Source: a virus (lineage: Duplodnaviria; Caudoviricetes). From it: 64,000 bases of DNA. The notes below the pieces were generated by a model. The model did no database searches. It had not been told where the DNA came from and saw only the letters and a list, made by a program, of their open reading frames with translations. The stretch spans positions 1-64,000 of IMG/VR virus record IMGVR_UViG_2974518997_000001. One strand, 5' to 3'. Shown here one piece after another: positions 4,374 to 62,956 of this stretch; the first letter of the stretch is position 1, and each line of letters begins with the position of its first letter. The translations under genes were made by a program, and so were the position numbers.

Positions 4374-4415
4374 TGCTACACTTGAATCACACGGGGAAGG
4401 GCCCCGTGGGATTCA
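4374..4415 (+). promoter_or_regulatory. extended -10 promoter (TG-C-TACACT) plus AAGGG-loop hairpin, copy 1
   Basis: TGCTACACT 4374-4382; tgaatcacacgggg-AAGGG-ccccgtgggattca 4383-4415. Confidence 0.75.
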
Positions 4416-4425
4416 GGAGTTCGCA

Positions 4426-4806
4426 ATGACCACTCAGACCGACGTCCAGATCACACCGCTCACCGCGGACACGCTGGACCAAGCCTTCAAGGGCTCGTAC
4501 TACACGATCGCCGGCGCGGGCGGTCCGCTCGACGTCTGGGTGAACGGCTACGAAGAGCTCATGGCCGAGCGCAAGATCGGGAAGCCCTCGCAGTGGTTCT
4601 CGACCACGGGCGCTGAGGTCAACGCGTACTTCCTGCGCACGGGCCGCTACCCGCACCCGGACGACCTGTTCAAGGACGACATCACCCTGCTCCTTTTCCC
4701 GCTCGACGGCGTCGGTGCTGGTGCACGGCTCCCGCTGTTCAAGATCGAGATGCAGGACCGCTGGTTCGACGACATCATCGGCGGCATGAAGCAGCGGGCG
4801 CGCTGA
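4426..4806 (+). CDS. hypothetical protein
   Basis: AGGAG RBS, phage codon bias. Confidence 0.8.
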   Translation: MTTQTDVQITPLTADTLDQAFKGSYYTIAGAGGPLDVWVNGYEELMAERKIGKPSQWFSTTGAEVNAYFLRTGRYPHPDDLFKDDITLLLFPLDGVGAGARLPLFKIEMQDRWFDDIIGGMKQRAR

Positions 4807-5072
4807 TGGCCGCCAAGTTCCTCATCGACGCCGTGGGGGAGGTCGCCAAGAGCCTCCCGTTCGGCGAAGATCGCAACCGCGTCGAGGCAATGATCCACGA
4901 CTACCGCGGCTTCCAGGAGGCCGCCGAGTACCTTCGTGCACGAGACCTCGAGAGGGCGATGCCCGCCTTCGACATCGTCGCTCGCGTGCGCCGGCTGATC
5001 TGTGAAGCGGAGAGCGCCGGTGACGACGCGGTGACGCTCGTGCAGCTGAAGGAGGCGGTCAGCGGTGGCTGA
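4806..5072 (+). CDS. hypothetical protein
   Basis: TGATG coupling. Confidence 0.75.
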   Translation: MAAKFLIDAVGEVAKSLPFGEDRNRVEAMIHDYRGFQEAAEYLRARDLERAMPAFDIVARVRRLICEAESAGDDAVTLVQLKEAVSGG

Positions 5073-5265
5073 GACCCTCGAGGACCTGCAGCGTCAGCTG
5101 AAGCAGGCCGAGAGGGACGAGGTCGTTGACGGCCACCGCTCGGACCGCGCGTACGCACGGAAACAGACCCGCCGGGGTCAGTTCTTCGCCCAGGAGTCGC
5201 GTCGCGATTTCCTCATCCAGACCATTCTCAAGCGCCGCATCGAGCGGCTGACCCAAGGAGCATGA
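5065..5265 (+). CDS. hypothetical protein
   Basis: overlapping start, GGAGG RBS. Confidence 0.7.
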   Translation: MAETLEDLQRQLKQAERDEVVDGHRSDRAYARKQTRRGQFFAQESRRDFLIQTILKRRIERLTQGA

Positions 5266-5432
5266 TGCTCGCACTCACCGGAGAGCACGTCCTGTGGCGC
5301 ACCGGTGAGGTCGTCACCAAGCTCACCATCGCCCACCGCCACAATGATCAGACCTGTCTCATCCTTCATCGCGACGGCACGACCGAACGCGTCGTGATCG
5401 ACAACATCCAGACCCTCAAGGAGTACCTGTGA
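5262..5432 (+). CDS. hypothetical protein (56 aa, not in ORF track)
   Basis: AAGGAG RBS, ATGA overlap upstream and GTGA overlap with the ligase; MMLALTGEHVLW... Confidence 0.7.
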   Translation: MMLALTGEHVLWRTGEVVTKLTIAHRHNDQTCLILHRDGTTERVVIDNIQTLKEYL

Positions 5433-6466
5433 ACTCGCCTCTTCCCACCCTCAAGCCGATGAAGATGACCGACATCCCGGTCACCGACGCGGAGAAGTAC
5501 CTGGTCGACGATGACTGGGTGCTCGAGCAGAAGCACGATGGCGCACGCGCGCTGATCACTGCGGTGTACGAGGAGGCACCCGGTTCCGAGGATCCTCGAT
5601 GGACGTTCACCTGGCAGGCGTCTGGTGGCGGCCCGCTGAAGTTCGCCGCGGCGGCGCAGCACATGCGCGACATCGAGAAGTCGCTGAGTGAGGTCTTCCT
5701 CCGAGAGGACGTCGACCGCGTGATCCTCGACGGTGAGCTGATCGTGGAGGACGGCGAGCTGCGCCTCTTTGACGTGGCGTACCTCGAGTACAACTCCCGG
5801 AACGAGCCGGACATCGAGCCGCACTACTTCTTCAGCCAGCGTCGAGCGGCGCTGGAGGAGCTTTTCGCGCATCACGACTACGCGAACGTGAAGGTCTCGC
5901 ACCAGGCGCTCACCGAGGACGAGAAGCGCCGCCTGTGGGCGGGCATCAACTACGAGGGCGTGGAGGGCGGCATGGTCAAGCACCTCGACGGCATCTACGA
6001 GCCGGGCGTGCGCACGAAGACCCAGCTCAAGCTGAAGCTCGTGAAGACGGCCGACGTCATCGTCACCTCGGTGGAGCGGAAGTTCGACCACAAGGGCATG
6101 GTGACCCACGGCTCGGCCGGCCTCGCTCTGCGCATCCGTCCGGAGCAGGACCCGAAGCCGTGGCTTTCAGCCGTCACCGGGAAGCGCACCGACGCCGCTG
6201 GACACGCGAAGATGAGCCCTGCACGACAGCTGGCTCACGCTTTCGTCCCTCGGGAGCAGATCTCGGTGGGCGCGGCCAGCCTCATCGGCAAGGACCTGAC
6301 GATCGACGTCGGCGACGTGGTGGAGGTCGCGTACCTCTACTGGGGCGGCGAGGCTCTCGTGCAGCCGCGCATCCTGCGCAAGCGTCTGGTCGAGGAGAAG
6401 CCCTCGGAGGACTGCTGGCTCGACCAGATCCCCGCGTACTCGCGGCGCTCGGTGGGGGTCTTCTGA
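5429..6466 (+). CDS. lig: ATP-dependent DNA ligase
   Basis: motif I EQKHDGAR, III ILDGEL, IIIa LFDV, IV EGGMVK, V KLK; C-terminal OB-fold-like region. Confidence 0.85.
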   Translation: MNSPLPTLKPMKMTDIPVTDAEKYLVDDDWVLEQKHDGARALITAVYEEAPGSEDPRWTFTWQASGGGPLKFAAAAQHMRDIEKSLSEVFLREDVDRVILDGELIVEDGELRLFDVAYLEYNSRNEPDIEPHYFFSQRRAALEELFAHHDYANVKVSHQALTEDEKRRLWAGINYEGVEGGMVKHLDGIYEPGVRTKTQLKLKLVKTADVIVTSVERKFDHKGMVTHGSAGLALRIRPEQDPKPWLSAVTGKRTDAAGHAKMSPARQLAHAFVPREQISVGAASLIGKDLTIDVGDVVEVAYLYWGGEALVQPRILRKRLVEEKPSEDCWLDQIPAYSRRSVGVF

Positions 6467-6759
6467 TGGTCGACATGAGCGCATTCCAGCCGGAGGTGCC
6501 CTCGGATTGGACTCCGGAGCTGAGCGACGTTCTTCAGCTGGAGACCCGTCTGCGCACGCCTCGACCGAGCTTCCGAGGCGTCGGCGGCGATGACAAGCCG
6601 CTGACTGACACCGAGCTCGATCTGCGGATCTCCAACGAGATCGTGAGCGCGGAGAAGAAGATCGTGGAGCTCAAGCTCCTGCGCCAGATCCGCGCGGAGA
6701 GGTCACGTGACGCGCACTGGTGGATCCGCGTGCTGAACACCCTCGGAGGCCGATCGTGA
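6466..6759 (+). CDS. hypothetical protein
   Basis: TGATG coupling; MVDMSAF... Confidence 0.7.
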   Translation: MVDMSAFQPEVPSDWTPELSDVLQLETRLRTPRPSFRGVGGDDKPLTDTELDLRISNEIVSAEKKIVELKLLRQIRAERSRDAHWWIRVLNTLGGRS

Positions 6760-6971
6760 CCGGCGGCGACACTCCCGTGCACACCGTGGCTGATCTCATC
6801 CAGGCGCTCAAGCAGCGTCCTTCGGATCAGCGCGCCGAAATGGCGATCAGCGTTGACCTCGAGACTCCCGGCAACGACACGACACCCACCAACATCTACG
6901 TCACCGGCCCTGACCGTGTGCGCACCAACCGGCACGGCCGGATCATCCTGACAGTGAGGACAGACCAGTGA
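6756..6971 (+). CDS. hypothetical protein
   Basis: GTGA overlap, GGAGG RBS. Confidence 0.7.
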   Translation: MTGGDTPVHTVADLIQALKQRPSDQRAEMAISVDLETPGNDTTPTNIYVTGPDRVRTNRHGRIILTVRTDQ

Positions 6972-7474
6972 AGACCCAGGACGAGATCGTCGCAGAGATC
7001 GAGAAGGTCTCGGCATCCGGCGAGGATATGTTCGGCGCACGGCGCGACGAGCTGATCGTGGCGCTCGACTTCGAGCACGCGAAGGCGTACATCCTCGACG
7101 ACGTGACCGAGGAGCAGTGGGCCGAGCACTACGCCTACAAGACCGACGAGGACGTTCGCAAGGGCGCGATTGACTACCTCGACTTCGCCGTCGGCAAGGC
7201 GCTGAACCACCGCGGCATCTCTGCAGGACGCTCGGTGGATCACTTCCTCGGGTTCGCGTTCCTGATCGGCGGCGACGAGGCTGTGCAGGCGATCCAGAAC
7301 ACCGAGTACCAGAACTACGGCGTGCCGCAGCTGGACCAGGCGACCGAGCTGCTCGGCATTCGTGAGGCCTGGGTCACGTACGCGGACCCGCGCTCGGAGG
7401 ACGGCGCTCAGCTGATGAACATGGCGGCGGGTCGTCCCTGCCGCCGCGGATGCGAGAGCGGGTGCGCAGCATGA
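6968..7474 (+). CDS. hypothetical protein
   Basis: GTGA overlap; strong codon bias. Confidence 0.8.
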   Translation: MKTQDEIVAEIEKVSASGEDMFGARRDELIVALDFEHAKAYILDDVTEEQWAEHYAYKTDEDVRKGAIDYLDFAVGKALNHRGISAGRSVDHFLGFAFLIGGDEAVQAIQNTEYQNYGVPQLDQATELLGIREAWVTYADPRSEDGAQLMNMAAGRPCRRGCESGCAA

Positions 7475-7971
7475 CCCTCAAGTCCACCTTCGAGCGGTAT
7501 CAGGAGATGGTCACACGGCTCCACATCGACGCCGGCGAGCTGCTCTCGGTCCCGGATCGTGAGCTTCTGCGCGAGGCTGAGATGATGGTGTTCCGCTACG
7601 AGCAGCTGGTGCAGTTCCTGCGCGGCGACGTGCGGAGCTTCGACGAGACGATCGACGTGATCGACGGGGCGAAGGGCATCATCGAGCGGAACCAGCTTCG
7701 GAAGGACGTGGCCGAGGAGCTGCGTCAGAAGACCGTGCTCCGGCAGGATCAGCGCGATGCGGAGAACCGGTTGGCCGTCAAGGGGACGACCACCGAGCAG
7801 GCCGAGCCGGCACCTGACGTCCAGATCCACCTGAGCCTGGACGGCCTGGACGAGTACAGCGCGCGCTACGACGCGGGCAACCTCGGCGAGGTCCGAGTGT
7901 CGCGTGATCTCTTCGTGAAGCAGATGAGGCGGTCCGGGCACATCGTCGCGAGCCTCCGAGGCGTGCGATGA
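7471..7971 (+). CDS. hypothetical protein
   Basis: ATGA overlap. Confidence 0.75.
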   Translation: MTLKSTFERYQEMVTRLHIDAGELLSVPDRELLREAEMMVFRYEQLVQFLRGDVRSFDETIDVIDGAKGIIERNQLRKDVAEELRQKTVLRQDQRDAENRLAVKGTTTEQAEPAPDVQIHLSLDGLDEYSARYDAGNLGEVRVSRDLFVKQMRRSGHIVASLRGVR

Positions 7972-8207
7972 CCTCCCGGGATCAGTTCGACTGGGGCCAC
8001 GTCACGCGCACGGCGGAGATGGATGCGGCGCTCGAGACCGCGCGCAAGAACCAGGAGGCGATCCACGGCGAGCGCTACTGGGAGCGGCCGGTCGAAACGA
8101 CGGGTCCGAAGGATCCGCATCCCGGCCACCACCACACCTGCTACCTGCGGCTGGGACGCGACGTCTGCACGTGCCCGGAGGAGGGGGTGGAGCTGTGGAG
8201 GTTCTGA
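7968..8207 (+). CDS. hypothetical His/Cys-rich protein
   Basis: ATGA overlap; HHHTC...CTC. Confidence 0.7.
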   Translation: MTSRDQFDWGHVTRTAEMDAALETARKNQEAIHGERYWERPVETTGPKDPHPGHHHTCYLRLGRDVCTCPEEGVELWRF

Positions 8208-8644
8208 TCCGTGTCCCGCACGCCGAGCCGAAGCTCGACCTGCTGGATCACTCCGTGCACCCTCGGGACACTCCCGGTGGCTGGAGCGCGCTCTGCTTCG
8301 CCATGGACGAGCCGGAGCCCAACGGCGACTGGGGCGGCTACGCGCACCACCGTCGCAAGGGCTGGCGCGGACCTCTGTACCTCCACGAGAAGGAGAAGCA
8401 GTACGAGGGCGGCGCGTCCTGGTACAACGCGATGCTGGACGCGTGGCAGCACGACGTGACCGAGCACACGTACCTCGTGCGCGAGCAGCGCTGGGACGAG
8501 GTCATCGGCGGAGTCAGCCTGGACCTGGGATCCGAGCGAGTGTCTCAGCCCCTCGGGGTGCCGTTCCGCTTCCGGGACCGGACCGTCGCAGGAGCGCTCC
8601 TCGAGTTCTGGGACGGCATGCTGCACTTCTACGGGTGGCGCTGA
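8195..8644 (+). CDS. hypothetical protein
   Basis: GGAGG-like RBS before GTG; codon bias. Confidence 0.7.
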   Translation: MEVLIRVPHAEPKLDLLDHSVHPRDTPGGWSALCFAMDEPEPNGDWGGYAHHRRKGWRGPLYLHEKEKQYEGGASWYNAMLDAWQHDVTEHTYLVREQRWDEVIGGVSLDLGSERVSQPLGVPFRFRDRTVAGALLEFWDGMLHFYGWR

Positions 8645-9063
8645 TGGTCACGCCCGTGAAGTTCACCCGCTCGGTGCACATCCAGAACCGGCACATCACG
8701 GCGGCGACGAAGAACCAGGGTCCTCCTCGAACGGAGATGGACCTGCTGTTCCGCGTCACGGCGTCCCTCGGCTCAGTACAGCTGAAGGTGCGCATGCAGG
8801 TCGCGCCGCCGGCACCGATGTACGCGGCGAACTACCGCGCGATCGAGCCGCACAGCGTCTCCAGCCACTTCAAGCGCAACCTAAAGAGCTGGTGGATGGA
8901 GAGCCACGACTGCGACGTGCTGGTGCAGGACGTCTGCTACGGCGACATCGGCTACGGCCTCGCGGAGGACGTGTGGCGGTCGTTCCAGCTGACCGAGGAA
9001 GATGGGTGGGCTCACCTCGAGCGCATCTACAACGAGTGGAGGAAGCCCGATGACGAGTCCTGA
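8644..9063 (+). CDS. hypothetical protein
   Basis: TGATG coupling. Confidence 0.7.
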   Translation: MVTPVKFTRSVHIQNRHITAATKNQGPPRTEMDLLFRVTASLGSVQLKVRMQVAPPAPMYAANYRAIEPHSVSSHFKRNLKSWWMESHDCDVLVQDVCYGDIGYGLAEDVWRSFQLTEEDGWAHLERIYNEWRKPDDES

Positions 9064-9406
9064 CATCAGCCAGCCGATCGACCCGAAGAGCACCGCGTGG
9101 TGCGGCGACTGCGGGTTCAAGGCGTGGGGCATCTGGGCACACAAGAAGGCCGGCGAGCACTTCGCTCAGTTCGAGCACCTCGGCCCGCAGGAGGGCCACA
9201 TCGTCTACGTGAACACGCCGAACACCGAGGAGGACGACCGCAAGCGTGACGCGGCGATCGCCCGCGCGGAGCAGGTGGACCGCGAGACGGAGGAAGCTCT
9301 CGAGCGGAAGGCTCGCACTGCGAACGCCTCGATCACTCGGACCGACGACGGCATTGCTCACCTCCAGGTGCACGAGCCGTTCTTCCCGCCGGTGACGCGG
9401 CGATGA
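9050..9406 (+). CDS. hypothetical protein, CxxC...H Zn-finger-like
   Basis: GGAGG RBS; CGDCG...H. Confidence 0.7.
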   Translation: MTSPDISQPIDPKSTAWCGDCGFKAWGIWAHKKAGEHFAQFEHLGPQEGHIVYVNTPNTEEDDRKRDAAIARAEQVDRETEEALERKARTANASITRTDDGIAHLQVHEPFFPPVTRR

Positions 9407-9597
9407 GCCACCACTCGACCACCACGATCCGCTGCGATCACAGCCCCATCCTGTGCACGGAGAAGATCAGCGGCTCAGGCAGCTACAAGGCCATGCTCGC
9501 CGCCTCCCTGCACGAGGGCTGGCAGCAGACGAAGAAGGGCAGGAACCTCTGCCCGAAGCACCGGACGACAGCGCCGGAGAAAGCAGGTACGCGATGA
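9403..9597 (+). CDS. hypothetical Zn-binding protein
   Basis: CDH...C...GW...LCPKH; ATGA overlap. Confidence 0.7.
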   Translation: MSHHSTTTIRCDHSPILCTEKISGSGSYKAMLAASLHEGWQQTKKGRNLCPKHRTTAPEKAGTR

Positions 9598-9905
9598 ACA
9601 CCGTCGTGTGGAAGTTCCCGATCGTGATCGCGGAGGACAACCTCTCGATCGAGATGCCGGCAGTGAGCGTGGTCGTCGCCGTGGGCTGGGACAACATCAC
9701 TCAGGGTCCGGCGATCTGGGCGATGGTCGACCCGACCAGCGAGAAGATCAAGCGGCGGTTCTCGATCCGCGGCACCGGCCACGACTCCACCGGGCTGAAC
9801 CCTCGGAACTATCTCGGGATGGTGCAGTACCCGACGGTCGCGCTGGTGTTCCACCTTTGGGACGGCTGGCCCGAGGGCGTCGAGCCGGGGACGGCGGTGG
9901 AGTGA
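9594..9905 (+). CDS. hypothetical protein (common small phage family)
   Basis: VVWKFP...IWAMVDP...IRGTGH...YLGMVQ...LVFHLW. Confidence 0.75.
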   Translation: MNTVVWKFPIVIAEDNLSIEMPAVSVVVAVGWDNITQGPAIWAMVDPTSEKIKRRFSIRGTGHDSTGLNPRNYLGMVQYPTVALVFHLWDGWPEGVEPGTAVE

Positions 9906-10123
9906 TGGACGTTCCCAAGCGCAGAGAGCGCACGATCGTCGAGGCCGTCATCGCTGTGCCGGACGGCGGCCTCATGGCCGACGACTTCGACAAGTCGCTG
10001 AACATCGTCACGGACCGGATGCGTGCCGAGGGAGTGAACCTCGGGTACGGCGACTCGTACAAGGTGCGTGTGGCCGACAACGAGCTCATCTTCGAGTACA
10101 TCCCGACGGCGGAGCGTCCGTGA
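9905..10123 (+). CDS. hypothetical protein
   Basis: TGATG coupling. Confidence 0.7.
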   Translation: MDVPKRRERTIVEAVIAVPDGGLMADDFDKSLNIVTDRMRAEGVNLGYGDSYKVRVADNELIFEYIPTAERP

Positions 10124-10482
10124 AGTCTGCAGCTCCGACGTTCATGGAGAACTGCCCGACGTGCGGGCTGCTCTTGGTGGACGCTGCGACGGCCGCGGCC
10201 CACTACCAGATCGGGTGCGTGCCCTCGGTGACGTGCGTGCAGTGCGGCGTGCCTCTCCCGTACTCGCAGTCGGTGGAGCACATCAAGCACTGCATCGGTC
10301 AGACGGCTCACATTCTGCACAACCGCAAGGCCGGAATGGTGGCATACCTGACCGACGAGGAGTGGACCGCGATCCAGAACAACACGCTCACCGTGGAGCA
10401 GGCGGCACCCATCGTCGGGCGCGCTGTGAACGGCGTGGAGTTCGAGACGGTCACGCTGAACCCGGACTCCGATCCGGCCTGA
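10120..10482 (+). CDS. hypothetical double Zn-finger-like protein
   Basis: CPTC...H...C and CVQC...H..HC. Confidence 0.7.
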   Translation: MKSAAPTFMENCPTCGLLLVDAATAAAHYQIGCVPSVTCVQCGVPLPYSQSVEHIKHCIGQTAHILHNRKAGMVAYLTDEEWTAIQNNTLTVEQAAPIVGRAVNGVEFETVTLNPDSDPA

Positions 10483-37523: not shown

Positions 37524-38091
37524 CCCGCTTCCGTGGCCGACCCCGATCCAGCACTCGATCTCCGAGGCGATGGACTGGGTCGGATCCGCGCTCTGGGACA
37601 TCGTCGAGCAGGCGAAGAACGCTCTCGTGCCGACGCCGCAGCGTGTGATCCACATCACGCCTGGTCGGCAGGTGCCGTGGGACCCGGAAGCAGCGTGCGG
37701 CATCGTCGGTGGCCGCGTGCTGACGATGACGCCGATCACCGGCCCGAAGGGTTCGACGAACCTGCCCTGCGGCGTGGTGGAGTACGTGGCCACGGTCGGC
37801 ATCCAGGTGGCGCGCTGCATCGCGACGGTGAACGACTCCCTGCAGGCTCCGACCGCGCAGGAGATCGACATGGACGGGCTGCAGATGACCCGCGACATGG
37901 CGAACCTGCTGCAGGTCATCCAGTGCCACTCGGCCGTGCGCACGATCGGCGCGTGGAACCCGTACGGTGCGATGGGTGGCATGGCCGGCGGGGAGTGGAC
38001 CTTCCAGCTGCGGATCCCGGTGTGCCCGTGCGGTCCGTCGATGAACCCGACCGGGGTTCAGACCTCCTCGGTGGACGGACTCTCCGCCTGA
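37513..38091 (+). CDS. tail terminator-like protein
   Basis: synteny; PGRQVPWD, VGIQVARC, PYGAMGGMAGGEW. Confidence 0.6.
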   Translation: MAGSPLPWPTPIQHSISEAMDWVGSALWDIVEQAKNALVPTPQRVIHITPGRQVPWDPEAACGIVGGRVLTMTPITGPKGSTNLPCGVVEYVATVGIQVARCIATVNDSLQAPTAQEIDMDGLQMTRDMANLLQVIQCHSAVRTIGAWNPYGAMGGMAGGEWTFQLRIPVCPCGPSMNPTGVQTSSVDGLSA

Positions 38092-38100
38092 CGATTGGTG

Positions 38101-38134
38101 TGCTACACTCGTAACACGGAAGGAAGGGCCTTCC
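38101..38134 (+). promoter_or_regulatory. extended -10 promoter plus AAGGG hairpin, copy 2
   Basis: TGCTACACT 38101-38109; ggaagg-AAGGG-ccttcc 38118-38134. Confidence 0.75.
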
Positions 38135-38153
38135 AGAATGAGGTATCACACAA

Positions 38154-38426
38154 ATGAACGCATACACCGTCGACAATTCGCGCGCTGCGTGGGAAATCCG
38201 CAAGAATGCGATCGCGCTGGAATCACGCAGAGCTGGGGACGTCGCGCCGGGCGATCACGTTCGATTCAACAACGCTCATGTCCGCGTGGTTCGGGACGTC
38301 GTCGCTGAAAACGGCAAGGTCAAGATTTTCGTGCACGACAGCAACGGAATGTGGTGGCTCGACGCCGATCACATGCTGGACATCGTGGCGGAGTCCGTGC
38401 CGGTCGGGGTCGGCTGGGTTCGCTGA
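38154..38426 (+). CDS. moron gene 1, small beta-rich hypothetical protein
   Basis: GAGGT RBS; own promoter and terminator; more A/T-ending codons than neighbours. Confidence 0.75.
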   Translation: MNAYTVDNSRAAWEIRKNAIALESRRAGDVAPGDHVRFNNAHVRVVRDVVAENGKVKIFVHDSNGMWWLDADHMLDIVAESVPVGVGWVR

Positions 38427-38436: not shown

Positions 38437-38469
38437 GAGCCCGTCACGGTACGCCGTGGCGGGCTTTTT
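38437..38469 (+). terminator. intrinsic terminator
   Basis: gagcccgtcacgg-tacg-ccgtggcgggct-ttttc. Confidence 0.85.
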
Positions 38470-38485
38470 CACGTCCTCACCGGTG

Positions 38486-38523
38486 TGCTACAGTGGTAAC
38501 ACGAGCTGGGAAGGGCCCAGCTC
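38486..38523 (+). promoter_or_regulatory. extended -10 promoter plus AAGGG hairpin, copy 3
   Basis: TGCTACAGT 38486-38494; gagctggg-AAGGG-cccagctc 38503-38523. Confidence 0.75.
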
Positions 38524-38538: not shown

Positions 38539-38868
38539 ATGAACACCGCAACACGTAGCACGGACGTCGACCGCCTTCACGGCGAGCTGAGCGAAGAGCT
38601 GTCGATCTTCGCAGTTCGTGAGAACGCCGGGACGTTCATTTGGCACGGCTGGGGCCACACGCCGCAGGGCATCGGCGGGATCGCATTCGCCTGTGGCACG
38701 GAATTCCCGGTGGAGGCCGAGTCGCCGAAGCGCTTCAAGCGCATCTACAAGACGTGCCCGGATTGCTTGCGAGCACTCGATGACATGGCCGACGCGATCC
38801 GGCAAGCCAACGCTCGAATCGAGGCGGCGGCGGAATCACGGCCGGCGCGCGTCACGCGGGTGAAGTAA
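38539..38868 (+). CDS. moron gene 2, Zn-finger-like hypothetical protein
   Basis: GGAG RBS; WH...ACG...TCPDC. Confidence 0.75.
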   Translation: MNTATRSTDVDRLHGELSEELSIFAVRENAGTFIWHGWGHTPQGIGGIAFACGTEFPVEAESPKRFKRIYKTCPDCLRALDDMADAIRQANARIEAAAESRPARVTRVK

Positions 38869-38880: not shown

Positions 38881-38914
38881 TGAGGGCTCCTCGTTCGCGA
38901 GGGGCCCTCATTTT
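38881..38914 (+). terminator. intrinsic terminator
   Basis: tgagggctcctcg-ttcg-cgaggggccctca-tttt. Confidence 0.85.
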
Positions 38915-55517: not shown

Positions 55518-55600
55518 GGCGGTCCTCTTCTCGGATGAGCACACTAGGCGTCCGTGCTCGTCAGCGGATTCTACGCCGCCCTGCTCTCGATCGGGAAGCG

Positions 55601-55641
55601 TGCTACAATAGTATTACGGAAGGGCGAAGGGCGCAACTCCG
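55601..55641 (+). promoter_or_regulatory. extended -10 promoter plus AAGGG hairpin, copy 4 (weak stem)
   Basis: TGCTACAAT 55601-55609; cgga-agg-gcg-AAGGG-cgc-aac-tccg. Confidence 0.65.
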
Positions 55642-55652
55642 GAAAGGACATC

Positions 55653-55937
55653 ATGAGCGACGAGAAGGTGCAGTACCGGCACCAAGTCATCGAGAAGTGG
55701 GTCAGCGAGTTCCGACCCAGCCTGACCGACTCGAACATCAAGACCTTCCTCGAGGAGTTCGTGATCGAGTGGGAAGAGGCCGAGCAAGCTCAGATCTGCG
55801 ACCACTGCGGAGATCCTCTCGACGGCACTGAGCCGGAGATGATCGACGAGCAAGACGGCACGCTCGCGCACAGCGAGTGCTTGGCCGAGGCGTACCGGGA
55901 TCCGCGCGAGGATTCCGGCTACTGGAAGGAGGACTGA
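55653..55937 (+). CDS. hypothetical protein with Zn-finger-like motif
   Basis: AAAGGA RBS; CDHCG...HSEC. Confidence 0.75.
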   Translation: MSDEKVQYRHQVIEKWVSEFRPSLTDSNIKTFLEEFVIEWEEAEQAQICDHCGDPLDGTEPEMIDEQDGTLAHSECLAEAYRDPREDSGYWKED

Positions 55938-55939
55938 TC

Positions 55940-56182
55940 GTGGCCACGAAGAAGCGGACCCAGGTCCTCACCGTCGCGCAGCAGCGCGCACGTCGTGAGT
56001 CGACGCAGTTCATCCTGGCCCGGACCTCGAAGGGCCGGCCGACGCTGATGCACGCGCTCGGCGAGCACTACGGCGACAAGACCGTGTGCGGCCTCGAGGT
56101 GACCGGCTGGTCGCGGGCGTACAAGTCGGAGCCGATCAAGGAGATCCTGTGCGTGAAGTGCGGGAAGAGCGTGGGTGCGTGA
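55940..56182 (+). CDS. hypothetical Zn-binding protein
   Basis: AAGGAGG RBS; MH...VCG...CVKC. Confidence 0.75.
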   Translation: MATKKRTQVLTVAQQRARRESTQFILARTSKGRPTLMHALGEHYGDKTVCGLEVTGWSRAYKSEPIKEILCVKCGKSVGA

Positions 56183-56940
56183 TGGCTGTCAAATACCTCA
56201 TCGTCCGTATCGACACTGACGAAGCTGACGTGCTGACTCTGCCTCGGATCCGCGAAGCAGTTCACGCCGAGCCGAAAGGCACCGCAGACCTCGTGCTGAC
56301 GGAGAACCCGTGGGTTCCTCTGAGGATCCGCGGTCAGCGGGAGCAGGACTTTCAGGCGGTCGACGAGATCTTCACGAGGATCCTGAATCACGCTCGTGAG
56401 CAGATGAAGCTCACCAAGGAGGCTCGAGAGGCTCGGGCCCTCCGTCGGGAGGAGAAGCGTCGTCAGGCCCGTGAGGCGCACACCGGCAACGTGTTCACCA
56501 CCGGCGTCGAGTACGGGGTCACCTACACGGACCCGGAGCGGCCGGTGACGATGACGACCGACTGGGAGAAGGCGCTCGAGTCGCAGAGGTTCTACAACCG
56601 CATCGGCGAGGGCAAGTACGTCTCGCGGATCCTCGAGCGCACGCCGGGTGTCGCACCAGGTCAGTGGTCGCCGGCATCGGGTCCTGACGGGGACGCGGAT
56701 GGGGAGGATCCTGACGAGCCGGAGATTCCGGTGAAGCCGACGGCCTACTACCGCGCGTCGGACAACCCGTACGGCCACGGCACGATCGTCTTGCGCGAGC
56801 TGCTCGCTGACATCGGACCGGGCGTTCACGACATCACTCGCTGGAGCTATGACGGCGGCGCGCTGGTCATCGAGGCCCGAGAGATCGCAGCGCGAGACTC
56901 GATCCTCGAGCAGTACAGGAGGGCGACCGGCGGTGAGTGA
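56182..56940 (+). CDS. hypothetical protein
   Basis: TGATG coupling. Confidence 0.7.
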   Translation: MAVKYLIVRIDTDEADVLTLPRIREAVHAEPKGTADLVLTENPWVPLRIRGQREQDFQAVDEIFTRILNHAREQMKLTKEAREARALRREEKRRQAREAHTGNVFTTGVEYGVTYTDPERPVTMTTDWEKALESQRFYNRIGEGKYVSRILERTPGVAPGQWSPASGPDGDADGEDPDEPEIPVKPTAYYRASDNPYGHGTIVLRELLADIGPGVHDITRWSYDGGALVIEAREIAARDSILEQYRRATGGE

Positions 56941-57187
56941 TCACATGGAGTTCGACCGGTACGGCATGCCGATCGTCTGGGACGTGAACCAGCTCGGAGA
57001 GATCGAGCAGATGAGCTTTCCGATGCGATGCATGCGGTGCCAGCACGTGCACGACACTGCGAAGGTCGAAGTCGTCCAGCGCTACGCTGACTGCACGGTG
57101 TGGAAGTGCCCGCGGTGTGGCGCGCATATTGACGACCGGCCGATCGGCTGGGGAGGAAGCGCGGAACCGCTCAGTGCGGGCCGCTGA
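56933..57187 (+). CDS. Zn-ribbon hypothetical protein
   Basis: AGGAGG RBS; CMRC...KCPRCG. Confidence 0.7.
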   Translation: MSDHMEFDRYGMPIVWDVNQLGEIEQMSFPMRCMRCQHVHDTAKVEVVQRYADCTVWKCPRCGAHIDDRPIGWGGSAEPLSAGR

Positions 57188-57215
57188 CGAGTGATGGTGA
57201 TGGAGAGGAACTGAC

Positions 57216-59255
57216 GTGGCCGGTGGCGCACAGAATGACGGCAACAAGCCGGGAGGCCCGATTGTATGGGTCATGAACGACGAGGACTTCGAGAACCTCA
57301 TCGAGGCGATCCTCGTCGCTCAGAAGGTCGTGGTCGACCTCGAGACGACGGGCCTCGTGCCGTACGCGTGGACGGACGGTCCGCGCAACGGCGGCATCGC
57401 GGCGCGCGTGGCTCTGGCGTCGTACACCCTCCCGGATGCGACGCGTCCCGGCGGCGACGAGTGGGACGGCAAGGAGCCGACCACCTGGATCCTGCCGCTC
57501 TCCCACCCGGACAGCCCGTTCGTCGGCGTGTGGCGTCAGAAGTTCACCGAGACCCTGCAGGCGATGAAGCAGTCGCGTCGGCCGATCTCGAACGTGAACC
57601 TCAAGTTCGACGCGAAGTACTGGTGGTTCTCCTCCAAGATCGATCTCACGGATCAGCTCGCCTGGGACCCGCAGCTGTCGGGCCATCTGCTCGACGAGAA
57701 CGAGCCGCGCAGGCTCAAGGAGCGCGCTCCCAAGGTCTTCGGGATCGAGCGCTGGGACGACGTGGAGTTCGACCAGCCGGGTGCCGCGGAGCGCGCGGAT
57801 CTGTTCACCCTCGGGTTCTACGCCGCGCGGGACACGTACTGGACGTGGCGTCTGGAGATCCACGACCGGGCGCTGATGTACCTCGATCGCGACGAGGACT
57901 CGGACGACGAGCCGATGTTCCCGGACGAGATCCAGAACGCTCGTCTGGGCAAGCTGGCGACGTGGGTCACGATGCCGACGATGGCCGCGCTCACGCGCAT
58001 GGAGTCCCGCGGGTTCGCGATCGACCGGGACTGGATCCACGCGAAGATCGAGGAGGACGAGGCGATCAAGGCGGAGGGTCTCGAGCTCTTCCGTCAGCGC
58101 ACGAACATGCCGCACCGCGGGATGAGCATGGCTCCCACCTCTCTCTGGTTCATCGAGGCGATGAAGCACGCGGTCGAGGACGGGCTGATCAACGTGCAGG
58201 AGATCACCAAGGGCGGGAAGCCGTCGTGGGGCAAGAACGTGCTGGTCCGGCAGGAGCGTCTGTGGGACATCGCGAACCCGGGCCGCGAGTCGGAGAACTT
58301 CGCCGGTCAGATGCTCAAGACGAAGCAGGCCACGAAGCGCCTGGAGTTCCTGAAGAGCTGGCTGGTCTACGCCACGCGGGATGGGTTCATCCACGCGTCG
58401 TACAACATCGGCTCGGTGGTGACGGGACGTCTGTCCTCCTCGGAGCCGAACCTCCAGCAGGTCACGAAGAAACTCCGGCCGGCATACGTGCCTCGTCCGG
58501 GCTACGGGATCGCGGCGATCGACTACAGCCAGCTGGAGCTGCGCGTGGCGGCGTTCGTCTCTCGGAGCCCCACGATGATCCAGGCGTTCATCGACGGCAA
58601 GGACCTGCATCGCGAGCTGGCGGCGACGATCAACCACATCGCGCCGGACAAGGTCACCGATCTCCAGCGCACACAGGCGAAGGCCGGGAACTTCGGGCTC
58701 CTGTACCTGATGGGCGCGGCGGGCTTCCGGTCGTACGCGGAGAACGTCTACGGCGTCTCGCTGACGGAGGCGGAGGCCGTGGCGGTCTACCGCGCGTTCT
58801 TCAAGCAGTGGGAGGGCATGCACGAGTGGCACCAGCAGTCGATTGCTCGTCTGCACCGCGACGGCTACGTGACCAGCCCAATCGGCCGCGTGCGTCGTCT
58901 GCCGGACGTCCACTCGGGGATCGACAGCTTCGTCACGCGTGCCGAGCGCGCGGGCGTGAACGCTCCTGTGCAGGGCTTCGGCGCTGACTTGATGAACATG
59001 GCCACGGCGAGCATTATGGGGCTCCTGCCGGGCACCCAGCCCGTGCGCGGGGCGTTTCCGGTCAACACCGTGCACGACGAGGTCACGGTGGAGGTCGAAC
59101 TCGCGCACTGGGAAGAGATCGTAGCGGAGTGCCAGGACCGCATGACGAATCTGAACCCGTGGCTGAAGAAGATGGGCTGCGAGCTGGACGTTCCGCTCAA
59201 GGCCGACGCGACAGTGGGGACCCGCTGGTCGCTCAACGACATCGGAGAGATGTGA
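57216..59255 (+). CDS. polA: DNA polymerase, family A, with 3'-5' exonuclease
   Basis: VVDLETTG, YAARD, TGRLSSSEPNLQQV, IDYSQLELR, RTQAKAGNFGLLY, VHDE. Confidence 0.95.
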   Translation: MAGGAQNDGNKPGGPIVWVMNDEDFENLIEAILVAQKVVVDLETTGLVPYAWTDGPRNGGIAARVALASYTLPDATRPGGDEWDGKEPTTWILPLSHPDSPFVGVWRQKFTETLQAMKQSRRPISNVNLKFDAKYWWFSSKIDLTDQLAWDPQLSGHLLDENEPRRLKERAPKVFGIERWDDVEFDQPGAAERADLFTLGFYAARDTYWTWRLEIHDRALMYLDRDEDSDDEPMFPDEIQNARLGKLATWVTMPTMAALTRMESRGFAIDRDWIHAKIEEDEAIKAEGLELFRQRTNMPHRGMSMAPTSLWFIEAMKHAVEDGLINVQEITKGGKPSWGKNVLVRQERLWDIANPGRESENFAGQMLKTKQATKRLEFLKSWLVYATRDGFIHASYNIGSVVTGRLSSSEPNLQQVTKKLRPAYVPRPGYGIAAIDYSQLELRVAAFVSRSPTMIQAFIDGKDLHRELAATINHIAPDKVTDLQRTQAKAGNFGLLYLMGAAGFRSYAENVYGVSLTEAEAVAVYRAFFKQWEGMHEWHQQSIARLHRDGYVTSPIGRVRRLPDVHSGIDSFVTRAERAGVNAPVQGFGADLMNMATASIMGLLPGTQPVRGAFPVNTVHDEVTVEVELAHWEEIVAECQDRMTNLNPWLKKMGCELDVPLKADATVGTRWSLNDIGEM

Positions 59256-59494
59256 TGGACGCAGACGAGTACCAGCGACGCCTGGAAGAGATGCGACGCA
59301 AGCACGCCGCTCAGCGGGAAGCTATGGCGCGCCGTCACCAGGAGGAGAAGGTCGATCAGGCGGTCGACGAGGCACTGGAGACACAGACTCCGCTCGAGCT
59401 CTTGCTCCTGACGGACGTGGCCCTGTTCTTCTCGTTCTCGATCATCATCAAGCTGCTGAGAGACTTCCCACGGCCGGATGACAACAACTTGTAG
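59255..59494 (+). CDS. hypothetical protein with C-terminal TM
   Basis: TGATG coupling. Confidence 0.65.
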   Translation: MDADEYQRRLEEMRRKHAAQREAMARRHQEEKVDQAVDEALETQTPLELLLLTDVALFFSFSIIIKLLRDFPRPDDNNL

Positions 59495-59598
59495 CACGAC
59501 CAGCTATCCTGAACGTAGACGTCGCAGATGAGCGCTGACAGCCTCGGAGCACGTCGCCAGACACCAAGACCAGAGGGGCAGGAAGGAGGAAAGAAGAA

Positions 59599-60003
59599 AT
59601 GCAGTCACAGACACCCCAGGCGGGAGCCGGCGGAACAGCCAGCAGCACGAAGACGAAGCCGCATTCGGTCCGCACCACGGAGAGCCTCTGGCTCTCTGCG
59701 AAGCGCCGCGCCGACAGCGAGAACGTCACCATGGGATTCATGATCACGGAGATGATGGACGGCTATGCGCGCGGGTTCATGGACCTGCCCAAGAGCGCAG
59801 CACCCACCAGCACCGCGAAGCGCGAGCCGAAGCACTCGGTCCGCACGACCGATCAGCTGTGGGCCAGCGCCCAGCGCCGCGCACGCTCGGAAGGCATCAC
59901 GATGAACGACGTCGTGGAAGGCATCCTGAGCGGCTACACCCGCGGATTGATGAACCTGCCCAAGGTGACGAAGACCTTCGTCGCCACCAAGCGCGCTGAC
60001 TGA
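59599..60003 (+). CDS. tandem ribbon-helix-helix DNA-binding protein
   Basis: two HSVRTT..LW.SA.RRA.SE..TM...GY.RG.M.LPK repeats; AGGAGG RBS. Confidence 0.75.
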   Translation: MQSQTPQAGAGGTASSTKTKPHSVRTTESLWLSAKRRADSENVTMGFMITEMMDGYARGFMDLPKSAAPTSTAKREPKHSVRTTDQLWASAQRRARSEGITMNDVVEGILSGYTRGLMNLPKVTKTFVATKRAD

Positions 60004-60018
60004 CCGTCAGCCTCAACC

Positions 60019-60116
60019 ACTGCCAGCGGACTCCGGGAGATGAGCCCGGCTCTGCGTCTCTTTCGGGGACGGACGAGCGCACACACAACGCGGAGGACCT
60101 GTCGTCCGCTGGCAGT
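60019..60116 (+). ncRNA. candidate multibranch structured RNA
   Basis: perfect 13-bp closing helix actgccagcggac/gtccgctggcagt enclosing internal hairpins; strand is a guess. Confidence 0.4.
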
Positions 60117-60142
60117 CTCATTCAGATAGACGCATACACAGA

Positions 60143-60175
60143 AGCAGGGCCCCGTTGACGCGACGGGGCCCTGCT
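60143..60175. terminator. strong stem-loop
   Basis: agcagggccccgt-tgacgcg-acggggccctgct. Confidence 0.6.
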
Positions 60176-60200
60176 GTTGAGAAGAAGAGGATGGTGCCTC

Positions 60201-62540
60201 ATGACACAGGATACAGGGAACACGCCGGCCAGCGTATCGGCGGCGTTGGAGGCGGTGAAGCGGGGGTACTCGCCGATCCCGATCTTCAGCCGGGACAAGA
60301 AGCCTGCGCTCGCGAACTGGACGAAAGGCGTCGGCACGGTCGACCCGGCGGAGGTCGCGCAGATCTTCACGGAGAGGGCCACGCAGGATCCGATCGCGGA
60401 GAACATCGGTCTGCTGCTGGGAGCCCCGTCAGGCGGTCTGATCGACGTCGACCTGGACCACCCCAAGACTCGGCGGCTGAAGGATCACTTTCTCCCGCGG
60501 ACCGCGATGCGATCGGGACGCGCGGGCCGGCCAGGCTCGCACTACTGGTTCGTGGCGGAAGAGGGCACGCTGCAGGGCTACCGCAAGTACACGATGCCCA
60601 AGAAGCCGGACGGACGTCAGGGCGACGTGATCGTCGAGTACCGGTCCACCGGAGGCCAGTCGGTGATCCCGCCCAGCATCCACCCCTCGGGCGAGGACTA
60701 CCGCTGGGAGGGTGACCCGTGGGGCGGCGAACGCGGCGCGCAGATCATCCACGGCCGCAAGCTCTCGGTGCAGGTGGCCACGCTCGCGCTGGCGACGGTG
60801 CTGCTGGATCAGTGGCCGACGCAGGGCAGCCGGCATGATGCGTATCTCGCTCTCGCCGGCGGCCTGCTCTGGTTCGGTGAGCGCAACGTCCACCCGTTCT
60901 GGGGCGACAACGGCGGGGCGAACACTCGGGTCCTGATCCGCGCGCTGGCGGAGGCGACTCTGGATGAGGACGGTCCGGACTCGCGTGAAGCAGAGGTCAT
61001 GAAGACCACGCTGAACCGGATCTACGACGGCCGCATGACCGCCGGCTTCCCCAAGCTCGCGGAGATCATCGGCGACCGGCACGTGAAGCAGGCGCGGAGC
61101 CTGATCGCGGAGGTCGAGCAGCTGGCGGGCTACCAGTCGCGTCAGGCTCCGGAGATCGACCGCGACATGGACCATGAGCTTACGCTCACCGCGGCGGAGG
61201 TCTCTGAGCTTCCCATGGAGGAGCGCGATCCGCTGATGGAGCGGGTGGGCACGTGGCAGTCGGTGGACCTCGAGCCGTACCTCTCGGGAGCCATCAAGCC
61301 GGTGGACCCGGAGCTGTTGGAACGCTCGGACTCGACGCTGCAGGACCCCAAGTTCCTGATGTACCCGGGCCGCGTGAACATGCTCTACGGCTCCTCGGAG
61401 TCGGCGAAGAGCTGGATCGCGCTGTACCTGACCAAGGAGGTCATCCGGAACGGCCAGCGCGTGATGTACCTCGACCTGGAGGACGACCCGGTCAATACCC
61501 TGAGCCGTCTGCAGCTGCTCGGGCTGACGCGTGACGACTTCCAGGGCGGCATGTTCCGCTACATCCGGCCGGAGGACCCGCTGGCACCCATGCAGCGCAA
61601 CCGCTGGGGCAAGGCGGAGGAGACCTCGGCCGGACGCGAGAACCAGGAGCTGTTTGAGCGGGAGCTGAATGAGCATGAGCCGTCGCTGATCGTGGCGGAC
61701 GGTATGAGCGTGCTCTACGGTCTGCACGGGCTGAACACCAACGACACGGTGGACACGGACGTCATCACCGGCTGGATGAAGAAGCTCACCCGCGGCGGGA
61801 AGACGACGGTGGTCATCATCGACCACACCGGCAAGGGCTCTGAGCGCGGGTCCCTCCCCATCGGCAGCCAGCACAAGGTCTCCATGGTCCAGGGCACCCT
61901 GCTGCAGGTGTGGCCCACGCGTCAGCCGATGCCGGGAGCCCTCGGGACCGTGGAGCTGATCGTGCTGAAGGATCGCCCCGGCCAGGTGCGCAAGATCGCG
62001 GCGGTCGGCAACGGCGGCAAGGCTCAGCAGGTGGCCAAGGTGACGCTGGACTCTCGGACGCCGGGAGCGACGTACATCACGATCGATCCGCCCACGCCGC
62101 CCGTGCAGGTGGCCGCCTCGGGTCAGCTGGACCTGCAGCGCTCACTGGACGCGGAGAAGGCGGAGAAGCTCAGCAACGCCAAGGACGCGATCATCTACAA
62201 GGTGTTCCGCGGCGACGACAAGGTGGAGCTGACCGCTTTGCAGATCTCGGAGCGGCTGTCGCGCGTGGAGGACCTCACGCCGGAGGAGCGGGAGATGCGT
62301 CGGGCGAAGAACGGGCAGTGGTCCGGCTGGGGTGCCAAGGCGCTGAAGAACCTCGTGGAGGGCGACAAGTGGCTGGAGCAGCTGGGGACGACCAAGGACC
62401 GTCGCTACCGGCTGAAGATCAAGGTGGAGGTGCCCAACGTGGACTTCTCGGTCGACTCCACCAGCACGGACTCTCCCACGGTGTCGCTGGACGCGAGCTC
62501 TCCTCTCGGGCCGGTCATGACCGTGGATGATGACGACTGA
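60201..62540 (+). CDS. bifunctional primase-polymerase / AAA (RecA-like) helicase
   Basis: Prim-Pol ENIGL...LIDVDLD, SHYWF, SVIPPSIHPSGEDYRW; P-loop YGSSESAKS, YLDLED, IVADG, IDH. Confidence 0.85.
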   Translation: MTQDTGNTPASVSAALEAVKRGYSPIPIFSRDKKPALANWTKGVGTVDPAEVAQIFTERATQDPIAENIGLLLGAPSGGLIDVDLDHPKTRRLKDHFLPRTAMRSGRAGRPGSHYWFVAEEGTLQGYRKYTMPKKPDGRQGDVIVEYRSTGGQSVIPPSIHPSGEDYRWEGDPWGGERGAQIIHGRKLSVQVATLALATVLLDQWPTQGSRHDAYLALAGGLLWFGERNVHPFWGDNGGANTRVLIRALAEATLDEDGPDSREAEVMKTTLNRIYDGRMTAGFPKLAEIIGDRHVKQARSLIAEVEQLAGYQSRQAPEIDRDMDHELTLTAAEVSELPMEERDPLMERVGTWQSVDLEPYLSGAIKPVDPELLERSDSTLQDPKFLMYPGRVNMLYGSSESAKSWIALYLTKEVIRNGQRVMYLDLEDDPVNTLSRLQLLGLTRDDFQGGMFRYIRPEDPLAPMQRNRWGKAEETSAGRENQELFERELNEHEPSLIVADGMSVLYGLHGLNTNDTVDTDVITGWMKKLTRGGKTTVVIIDHTGKGSERGSLPIGSQHKVSMVQGTLLQVWPTRQPMPGALGTVELIVLKDRPGQVRKIAAVGNGGKAQQVAKVTLDSRTPGATYITIDPPTPPVQVAASGQLDLQRSLDAEKAEKLSNAKDAIIYKVFRGDDKVELTALQISERLSRVEDLTPEEREMRRAKNGQWSGWGAKALKNLVEGDKWLEQLGTTKDRRYRLKIKVEVPNVDFSVDSTSTDSPTVSLDASSPLGPVMTVDDDD

Positions 62541-62572
62541 GTCGCCTCGGTAGCACGCTGAGAATAGGGCCG

Positions 62573-62650
62573 CTGAATACTCAGAGCACGGATAGCCCAA
62601 TTCTCCTGAATTCTCAGAGCACGGAATGCTGGATTCTCCTGAATTCTCAG
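62573..62650 (+). repeat. three 33-bp-period iteron-like repeats, putative replication origin
   Basis: CTGAAT(A/T)CTCAG at 62573, 62606, 62639 in the non-coding gap after the primase/helicase. Confidence 0.7.
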
Positions 62651-62749
62651 GCGGTCTGAGAACGGTCGTGCGTGCTACTTTCCACATGGGGAGAACCTGT
62701 GGACAACTCGTTCGTATCACTCCGGTCTGCGCTCTCATGTGTGCGCGGG

Positions 62750-62830
62750 TCTTCATTCATTCATTTACTCATTTAGGCGTGTGGGGCCCTTCGGGCCCCA
62801 CACCTCAAAAGAGCAAGTGAAGGAAAGAAG
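62750..62830. repeat. long imperfect pyrimidine-arm/purine-arm inverted repeat C
   Basis: cttcattcattcatttactcattt...gtgtggggccc-ttc-gggccccacac...aaaagagcaagtgaaggaaagaag. Confidence 0.75.
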
Positions 62831-62921
62831 TCCCACACTCTCATGAGAGCGCCGATAGTCAGATACCGGTAGATCACATCAGAATTGGTTCTGACGAATT
62901 CCCAGAATTGGACGTCATCCG

Positions 62922-62956
62922 TGCTACACTTGTACTACAGGAACGAAGGGCGTTCC
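62922..62956 (+). promoter_or_regulatory. extended -10 promoter plus AAGGG hairpin, copy 5
   Basis: TGCTACACT 62922-62930; ggaacg-AAGGG-cgttcc 62940-62956. Confidence 0.75.

Follow-up and report, generated by a model that had tools for sequence, protein, structure and literature searches.

An invariant AAGGG loop on covarying stems: a promoter-linked hairpin in the leaders of Microbacterium phage transcription units

Why would a phage keep the same loop, AAGGG closed by a G-C pair, behind one promoter after another, on stems that differ from one site to the next? The question is raised by the first 64 kb (64,000 nucleotides; 66.6% G+C; here called the window) of the virus record IMGVR_UViG_2974518997_000001, a genome of 97,757 bp, in which a preliminary description had noted five promoter-like words, each followed by such a hairpin. 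The genome is very probably that of phage Hendrix, a lytic, circularly permuted singleton with 66.1% G+C that infects Microbacterium foliorum NRRL B-24224 and carries 40 open reading frames (ORFs) between terminase and portal, four tRNAs, and an RtcB ligase (PMC7302621). Its nearest GenBank relatives are the Microbacterium phages Rasputia (97.1 kb) and Leaf/Dewdrop (95.3 kb), which NCBI places in the genus Rogerhendrixvirus; the replication genes share about 80% DNA identity between this genome and those of Rasputia and Leaf/Dewdrop, and the endolysin is 96.6% identical to that of Rasputia. Almost nothing has been mapped of how Microbacterium phages, or actinobacteriophages as a whole, regulate their genes. 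Here, we report that the hairpin is a real, conserved, and structured element, most likely a regulatory RNA motif, and we weigh what it may do.

The comparison among the three phages carries the main finding. AAGGG hairpins occur six times in this genome, seven times in Rasputia, and five times in Leaf. The 18 copies fill six syntenic positions and additional ones, and 13 stem sequences are represented among them. In an ungapped alignment, all seven positions of G-AAGGG-C are invariant in 18/18 copies and the flanking columns are variable. Taken as a 6-bp stem, 91.7% of the cells are paired, compared with 59.4% in shuffled alignments, and the covariation score is 0.79 versus 0.20 after shuffling, a value that none of 500 shuffles reached; when the partner strand was slid by 1 to 3 columns, pairing was at most 48%. 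All unpaired cells come from a single site (site D), where the stem is interrupted by an internal loop. The stem pairs include two G.U and zero C.A combinations. The proposal that the structure is under selection, with a fixed loop and unrelated but pairing stems, is thus borne out, and it extends to the orthologous promoters of two related phages.

These same comparisons bear on the simplest alternative, namely, that the hairpins have no function of their own and are recent duplicates of one promoter cassette in which the loop is fixed by shared ancestry. The almost identical flanks of the fifth and sixth copies of this genome would fit such an origin. However, even these two copies differ by two compensatory changes in the stem (GGAACG/CGTTCC in the fifth, GGGAGG/CCTCCC in the sixth, at 76492), and the orthologous stems at the fifth site (site E) are CGGGCCG/CGGCCTG in Rasputia and CAGGCCG/CGGCCTG in Leaf. 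With 13 stems around an unchanged loop, compensatory changes among both paralogues and orthologues in genomes that are about 20% diverged, and flanks that vary next to seven invariant columns, we find this explanation scarcely credible.

The promoters themselves form a class. The word GTGCTACANT occurs five times in the window, always on the + strand (4373, 38100, 38485, 55600, and 62921; 0.07 occurrences expected; 0/100 shuffles reach five), as had been described with coordinates that mark the TG of each element, and a sixth copy lies beyond the window at 76492. The sites are real, but the word turned out to be too narrow: the orthologous sites of Rasputia and Leaf carry GTGATACA or GTGGTACA, and a second conserved block follows. 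Across 27 promoter-like sites in the three genomes, the consensus is GTG-N-TACA-N-T followed by tGtAtCAC (general form, nGnAnCAC), and the -35 region is not conserved, in agreement with the earlier remark that there is no clear -35 element; a promoter scan that requires a -35 element misses these sites. Matches to GTG-N-TACA-N-T are found on the + strand only, and those inspected are intergenic. TGnTAnnnT is the actinobacterial extended -10 element, for which transcription usually starts 7 nt past the hexamer, and at that position the 27 sites have a nearly invariant A, followed by C. When 6 nt are left between the TANNNT hexamer and +1, as is usual in actinobacteria, the start falls on this conserved A, which we take as the putative start site. 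Two annotated starts in Rasputia, the GTG codons of genes 13 (6907) and 64 (37730), coincide with the GTG of the extended -10 element; both genes probably start instead at the ATGs located past the hairpins.

In total, this genome has eight class promoters (TG at 4374, 38101, 38486, 55601, 62922, 70515, 76493, and 87140), six of which are followed by an AAGGG hairpin; 70515 and 87140 lack it. The heptamer GAAGGGC occurs within 25 nt of the same number of class promoters (6/8), and all six occurrences are flanked by a stem. At the five window sites, the loop begins 15, 15, 17, 18, and 16 nt after the hexamer, exactly within the range of 15 to 18 nt first described. The heptamer alone is overrepresented in the window (34 occurrences versus 9.5 expected), an excess that we attribute to the AAG-GGC codon pair; therefore, the heptamer by itself is no evidence, and the signal lies in promoter, loop, and stem combined. 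Among AAGGG words on the + strand, 7/89 have a stem of at least 5 bp, versus a background of 0.9% (P = 2e-5).

The first copy combines a promoter at 4373 to 4390 (extended -10 element GTGCTACACT, block tGaAtCAC, putative +1 at A4389) with a hairpin at 4390 to 4408 (CACGGGG-AAGGG-CCCCGTG; minimum free energy, -14.8 kcal/mol), and the downstream ATG is at 4426. Copies 2 and 3 each head one gene closed by a terminator, in the manner of a classic moron. For the first moron, the promoter lies at 38100 to 38117 (putative +1, A38116), the hairpin at 38118 to 38134 (GGAAGG-AAGGG-CCTTCC), the ATG at 38154, and the intrinsic terminator, an 11-bp stem followed by TTTTT, at 38439 to 38464. For the second, the promoter at 38485 to 38502 (GTGCTACAGT; putative +1, A38501) is followed by a hairpin at 38503 to 38523 (GAGCTGGG-AAGGG-CCCAGCTC, with the stem gagctggg/cccagctc; minimum free energy, -15.8 kcal/mol; z, -3.2), an ATG at 38539, and a terminator with a 13-bp stem and TTTT at 38881 to 38910. 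The DNA polymerase operon begins with a promoter at 55600 to 55617 (GTGCTACAAT; putative +1, A55616) and a hairpin at 55617 to 55641 ahead of the ATG at 55653. Its stem, site D of the alignment, had been listed as a weak gcg/cgc; we find that an outer CGGA/UCCG helix continues the inner GCG-AAGGG-CGC beyond a 3x3 internal loop, and that this outer helix also covaries (GGA/UCC here versus GGG/CCC in Rasputia and Leaf). Tandem GAAGGGC words, GGAAGGGCGAAGGGC, occupy 55619 to 55632 at this site; the first (55619 to 55625) lies outside the loop, which is formed by the second alone. In Rasputia and Leaf, the corresponding sequence is GGGAGGCGAAGGGC. Finally, the unit after the primase/helicase gene has its promoter at 62921 to 62938 (putative +1, A62937), its hairpin at 62940 to 62956 (GGAACG-AAGGG-CGTTCC), and its ATG at 62974. 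All of these features are on the + strand, and all of the other stems and loops are as first listed.

A covariance model of the hairpin (model R1; 19 positions) separates true copies, at 22.0 to 28.9 bits, from a background of at most 18.4 bits in 340 kb; hairpins 1, 2, 3, and 5 score 26.4, 26.3, 25.2, and 26.5 bits, respectively. The scan of the genome and its relatives that had been proposed recovers the hairpins in Rasputia and Leaf, with G-AAGGG-C retained at the orthologous promoters. No further + strand copy of at least 22 bits was found in the 98-kb genome, where the best background score was 18.4 bits. The only other match of at least 22 bits, CCGCGGG-AAGGG-CCCGCGG (23.9 bits), lies on the minus strand at 77039 to 77057, with counterparts at 74714 to 74732 in Rasputia and 75500 to 75518 in Leaf. 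Read on the + strand, this hairpin has a CCCUU loop that complements AAGGG, and it supplies the codons for RGPFPR within the 3' end of a gene for a 92-aa membrane protein. We considered it as a loop-loop "kissing" partner and dropped it, as it is coding and its codon identity across the three phages does not exceed the gene-wide rate (0.67^6 = 0.09).

The motif is restricted to this clade, i.e., this phage, Rasputia, and Leaf. Ten other M. foliorum phages (716 kb) yielded no model R1 match of at least 22 bits, the best being 19.9 bits in Big4, an unrelated 192-kb phage of the same host. That single hairpin (96185 to 96203; AGCTAGG-AAAGG-CCTAGC, inside a longer stem) lies 24 nt upstream of an ATG and has a Shine-Dalgarno-like loop closed by G-C. 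The representatives of clusters EC (ClearAsMud) and EJ (Goodman) and the singleton Appa have no model R1 copy; a Cluster EF phage was not identified among the phages scanned. Neither promoter nor hairpin occurs in the first 50 kb of the 56-kb record of Dulem virus 38, whose DNA polymerase I is 47% identical. In IMG/VR, a tight composite pattern gave 18 matches, none with a stem of at least 4 bp; the pattern GTG(A/C)TACANT...GAAGGGC gave, among the matches listed, random low-GC contigs with a stem of 10 at 1/237 loci and no relative; and a search with DNA polymerase I found no relatives. Among the first 120 matches listed for the composite pattern in bacterial genomes, stem lengths were chance-like. 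As model R1 was unreliable on whole bacterial genomes (150/2,644 candidates scored), a pattern count on 301 actinobacterial genomes was used instead, and it gave 3 matches versus about 33 for a reversed control. A blastn search with one element returned Rasputia only. The preliminary description did not recognize the element as a described one, and on present evidence the hairpin has no prior description: an Rfam scan of the whole genome at the gathering threshold returned the four tRNAs only and no family matching the hairpin, the words promoter, hairpin, and stem-loop do not appear in the paper describing Hendrix (PMC7302621), and a literature search on Rasputia, Dewdrop, Rogerhendrixvirus, and Microbacterium phage promoters turned up nothing relevant.

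Does the element act as DNA or as RNA? All promoter-associated copies lie on the sense strand of what would be the 5' untranslated region, and no T-run follows any hairpin. When the leaders are folded from the putative +1, the hairpin is the minimum-energy structure, with 1 to 3 unpaired 5' nucleotides and an open loop; it starts 8 to 9 nt past the -10 hexamer (about +2 to +4) and, in this genome, ends 11 to 19 nt upstream of the first start codon, with an ordinary Shine-Dalgarno sequence in between. Over all copies, the stem would lie within about 0 to 4 nt of the mRNA 5' end in 16/18 if the conserved A is +1. Of the two levels of action first suggested, the RNA leader hairpin fits best, given its sense-strand position in the leader, the presence of G.U without C.A pairs, and its start 1 to 3 nt after the likely +1. 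The other suggestion, a DNA-level element, would be either an extruded hairpin or cruciform that is part of the promoter, as in phage N4, or an operator for a DNA-binding regulator. It drew on the long stem of copy 1, whose arms reach 4383 to 4415 in this genome (tgaatcacacgggg/ccccgtgggattca, 13/14 paired with one A.G mismatch) and so extend into the -10/+1 region; the nGnAnCAC block also shows that something past the -10 hexamer is read on DNA. However, Rasputia and Leaf have the stem CACGGGG/CCCCGTG only, so the extension does not support such a role, and stems of 5 to 8 bp (3 + 4 bp in copy 4) are short for extrusion. Further, the G.T pairs of the top strand are C.A mismatches on the other strand, and a protein that binds duplex DNA would not select covarying stems around a fixed center. 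The N4 version fares no better: the longest ORF of the window has 1,233 aa, so an N4-type virion polymerase is absent from it, and the hairpin follows the -10 element, whereas in N4 promoters it precedes +1. We regard action at the DNA level as highly improbable.

The units behind the promoters bear on one of the roles suggested for an RNA hairpin, a boxB-like nut site on which an N-like protein would make RNA polymerase resistant to terminators over long operons. As had been noted, the hairpin-bearing units are non-structural, and a promoter-proximal hairpin with a fixed pentaloop at the head of long + strand gene arrays would suit such a system, as would the scarcity of canonical terminators. 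A scan for a GC-rich stem followed by a T-run found just three in 97.8 kb: the two moron terminators and one at 93256 to 93284. Together with the eight promoters, they provide a working transcription-unit map for a 98-kb phage. However, 2/6 hairpin-bearing units are the single-gene morons, each closed by one of these three strong terminators. Antitermination would defeat the unit's own terminator there, and therefore we rate this reading low. The leaders also leave no room for a boxA, with 1 to 3 nt preceding the hairpin and flanks that are unconserved except for the Shine-Dalgarno sequence; the loop is not GNRA-like, neither starting with G nor ending with A in 18/18 copies; and scans of about 77 small ORFs against Pfam and PHROG found no N, Q, or Nus-like family. 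A boxB-like antitermination is thus disfavored, and we consider it very unlikely.

The reading that we favor, with a confidence just short of even, is that of a leader stem-loop whose loop is read by a lineage-specific, presumably phage-encoded, factor. The cassette would have two parts: a -35-less extended -10 promoter, GTG-N-TACA-N-T plus nGnAnCAC, and a transcribed part consisting of 1 to 3 free nucleotides followed by a stem-loop of 5 to 8 bp with G-AAGGG-C. To judge from this geometry, the stem would cap the mRNA 5' end against 5'-end-dependent decay of the RNase J or RNase E type. The invariant loop would serve as the docking site for the factor, most likely a phage-encoded RNA-binding protein or nuclease, that could co-regulate the stability and/or first-cistron translation of the six units as a single class, much as a RegA/RegB-like or coat-protein-like tag would. 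Action at the RNA level, protection of the 5' end, and the nature of the reader are all inferred. A phage-encoded reader is favored because the motif is both clade restricted and strictly invariant. That the loop matters beyond a generic cap is also suggested by the two remaining class promoters. The first, at 70515 (70514 to 70551), has a 22-nt unstructured leader without a hairpin; the second, at 87140 (87139 to 87190; GTGGTACAAT followed by tGGATCAC), has a different 5' hairpin, CGCUUAU-GCCACGG-AUAAGCG, which is kept in all three phages, with the loop GCUACGG in Rasputia and Leaf. The 70515 unit encodes a 411-aa protein with weak SLATT/membrane-like matches, and its promoter is kept in Rasputia (67803). 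The 87140 promoter precedes an AAA-ATPase gene.

Several points weigh against this favored reading. Promoter activity is itself deduced from sequence, and the nGnAnCAC block is unusual and more than a plain sigma-A promoter needs. No RNA-binding, nuclease, or antiterminator domain was recognizable by Pfam and PHROG scans in about 77 small ORFs or in the first genes of the units; this null result weighs little, because about 75% of Hendrix genes are orphams (PMC7302621). Nine small basic proteins, among them those encoded at 5065 to 5265, 55877 to 56182, and 67850 to 68071, are common to all three phages and have no assignable fold; they are candidate readers of the loop. Two copies in Rasputia are near a start codon and not 5'-terminal: the hairpin at 6944 opens 13 nt past +1 and closes 1 nt ahead of an in-frame ATG, and that at 38257 lies about 100 nt after a GTGGTACGCT promoter and 13 nt before an ATG. 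These copies weaken the 5'-cap component and point towards translation. Finally, GAAGG, i.e., the closing G and the first four letters of the loop, is the second commonest Shine-Dalgarno word in these genomes, and the ribosome is therefore a serious alternative reader. Around the Rasputia 38257 copy, a 33-codon upstream ORF (38140 to 38284) contains the hairpin; its opening, ATGAATCACA, duplicates the beginning of the gene that follows. Immediately past the terminator (about 37990 to 38025) is GTGATGCAGT, a word that resembles a decayed promoter.

Were the ribosome the reader, the loop would be a Shine-Dalgarno mimic (GAAGGG) that pairs with the 16S rRNA 3' tail and on which the 30S subunit parks at the 5' end, shielding the message against 5'-3' decay, in the way of STAB-SD and the SP82 polypurine stabilizer in Bacillus, and/or feeding the nearby ribosome-binding site; no phage protein would be needed, and the motif would be related to the start-associated sequences of phage Clusters K and EF but displayed on a hairpin. 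The word counts speak for it. GAAGG occurs at 53/285 tight gene junctions in the three phages (9.5 expected), where AGGAG (62), GGAGG (47), AAGGA (45), and AAGGG (11) are also used, AAGGG being enriched 3.8-fold, and the closing G plus loop departs from the usual GAAGGAG in the last two letters. Downstream of promoter 87140, AAGGGAG is the Shine-Dalgarno sequence of the gene. So does position: the hairpin always ends 1 to 19 nt before a start codon, including in the two promoter-distant Rasputia copies, and at Rasputia 6944 the loop lies 6 nt before the in-frame ATG, although this start is ambiguous, with a second ATG 27 nt further on. The start-associated motifs of Cluster EF (GGGAAAGGACCCC) and Cluster K likewise sit at the position of a ribosome-binding site, and the EF consensus is shown as complementary to the 3' end of 16S rRNA (PMC7302621). 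Set against this are the uniformity of the loops, with G-AAGGG-C in 18/18 and the better GAAGGAG in none, whereas the real Shine-Dalgarno sequences of these genomes vary, and the separate Shine-Dalgarno sequence that lies downstream in nearly all copies. A closed pentaloop is, moreover, a poor pairing partner: 5 nt closed by G-C is sterically unfavorable for a duplex of 5 to 6 bp. Ten other phages use the same ribosome in the same host without the motif. Taken together, we judge the ribosome an improbable reader that nevertheless deserves to be taken seriously.

A bolder form of the phage-encoded reading is that one orphan phage protein, a binder or an endonuclease, reads the loop on every phage transcript made by the host polymerase and so switches the class on or off during infection. 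We put this forward tentatively, as a possibility with the balance of likelihood against it. If true, actinophages would have their own equivalent of N-boxB or RegA/RegB, built from an unrelated protein and RNA, and this would give the first mechanistic handle on the "start-associated" motifs of actinobacteriophages.

The host polymerase enters this picture on the basis of what the phage seems to lack. No Sigma70_r2 domain and no T7-type RNA polymerase were found in the phage, and no ORF of the window is longer than 1,233 aa; reading by the host RNA polymerase is therefore the economical view, and the promoters are most likely read by its sigma-A form. A search with PF00940 gave no match, but its control genomes were equally silent. 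The only sigma-like match is a sub-threshold Sigma70_r4_2-type helix-turn-helix at 2078 to 2197 of the window (23.9 bits versus a cutoff of 25.7) in a 180-aa ORF just upstream of the large terminase gene. As region 2 is absent, a sigma factor is a less likely product of this ORF than a small-terminase or DNA-binding protein.

Two further sites lie outside the class. GTG(C/A)TACGCT at 92092 to 92101 is kept in Rasputia (89900) and Leaf (88486) and has neither the nGnAnCAC block nor a hairpin; it is located at a gene end, about 200 nt upstream of the tRNA cluster, and is a possible tRNA promoter. The other, at about 77095 to 77135, is a long hairpin, GTCGTCTCTCTCC...GGAGAGAGACGGC, whose left arm is rich in pyrimidines and whose right arm is rich in purines; it directly precedes the ribosome-binding site of a gene for a 699-aa LAETG sortase substrate.

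The fixed loop, the covarying stems, and the strict link to a promoter argue for recognition at the RNA level. At 17 to 25 nt, the hairpin is a small and easily mutated test object, a candidate for a new RNA family, and, with its promoter, a compact promoter-leader cassette for expression in Microbacterium.

How does it compare with known systems? The early promoters of N4 share a promoter-linked hairpin with a variable stem and conserved loop features, but the N4 hairpin has a 3-nt loop, is located upstream of +1, acts on the template strand, and serves a 3,500-aa virion RNA polymerase, none of which applies to a 5-nt loop downstream of the start. Lambda N/boxB is likewise a promoter-proximal phage RNA hairpin with a 5-nt loop, which, as here, would be read by a small protein; however, boxB folds like a GNRA tetraloop (GAAAA, GAAGA, or GACAA) and comes with boxA, whereas the present loop is AAGGG without boxA, and its stems differ among sites. 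T4 RegA/RegB and the coat protein operators of RNA phages resemble the favored reading in that a phage factor reads a short signal, either purine-rich or a hairpin, close to the ribosome-binding site in an entire class of early mRNAs, which are thereby shut off or destabilized. This is an analogy only: RegB cuts GGAG, operator hairpins include the start codon, and no homologue of these proteins was detected here.

Closer in geometry are the 5' stabilizers, namely, the stem-loops of the Escherichia coli ompA and T7 gene 10 leaders and, in Bacillus, the cryIIIA STAB-SD and the polypurine element of phage SP82: the present hairpin is a few nucleotides from the likely 5' end, and its loop is polypurine and Shine-Dalgarno-like but would not serve as the initiating Shine-Dalgarno sequence. 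The host phylum has the 5'-3' exonuclease RNase J. Generic stabilizer hairpins have no loop-sequence requirement, whereas the present loop is invariant, and STAB-SD is single stranded with a full Shine-Dalgarno sequence, whereas here an imperfect one is held in a closed pentaloop and two copies are not 5'-terminal.

Closest in setting are the start-associated sequences (SAS/ESAS) of Cluster K mycobacteriophages and Cluster EF Microbacterium phages, which are cluster-specific conserved motifs in small gaps upstream of the starts of a subset of mostly non-structural genes, all in one orientation, and whose function has been called unclear since 2011 (PMC3203893, PMC7302621); an 18-bp motif in Cluster EC and an 18-bp inverted repeat in Cluster EG are other start-linked repeats of Microbacterium phages. 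An SAS keeps a whole 13-bp word at the position of the ribosome-binding site, whereas here only 7 nt are fixed and a stem of 5 to 8 bp covaries; this hairpin, whose sequence is unlike GGGAAAGGACCCC, lies 11 to 19 nt upstream of the ATG with its own Shine-Dalgarno sequence in between and is tied to a conserved -10 element. By our own observation, the EF word has a purine-rich core that resembles a Shine-Dalgarno sequence and is enclosed by short G/C inverted repeats.

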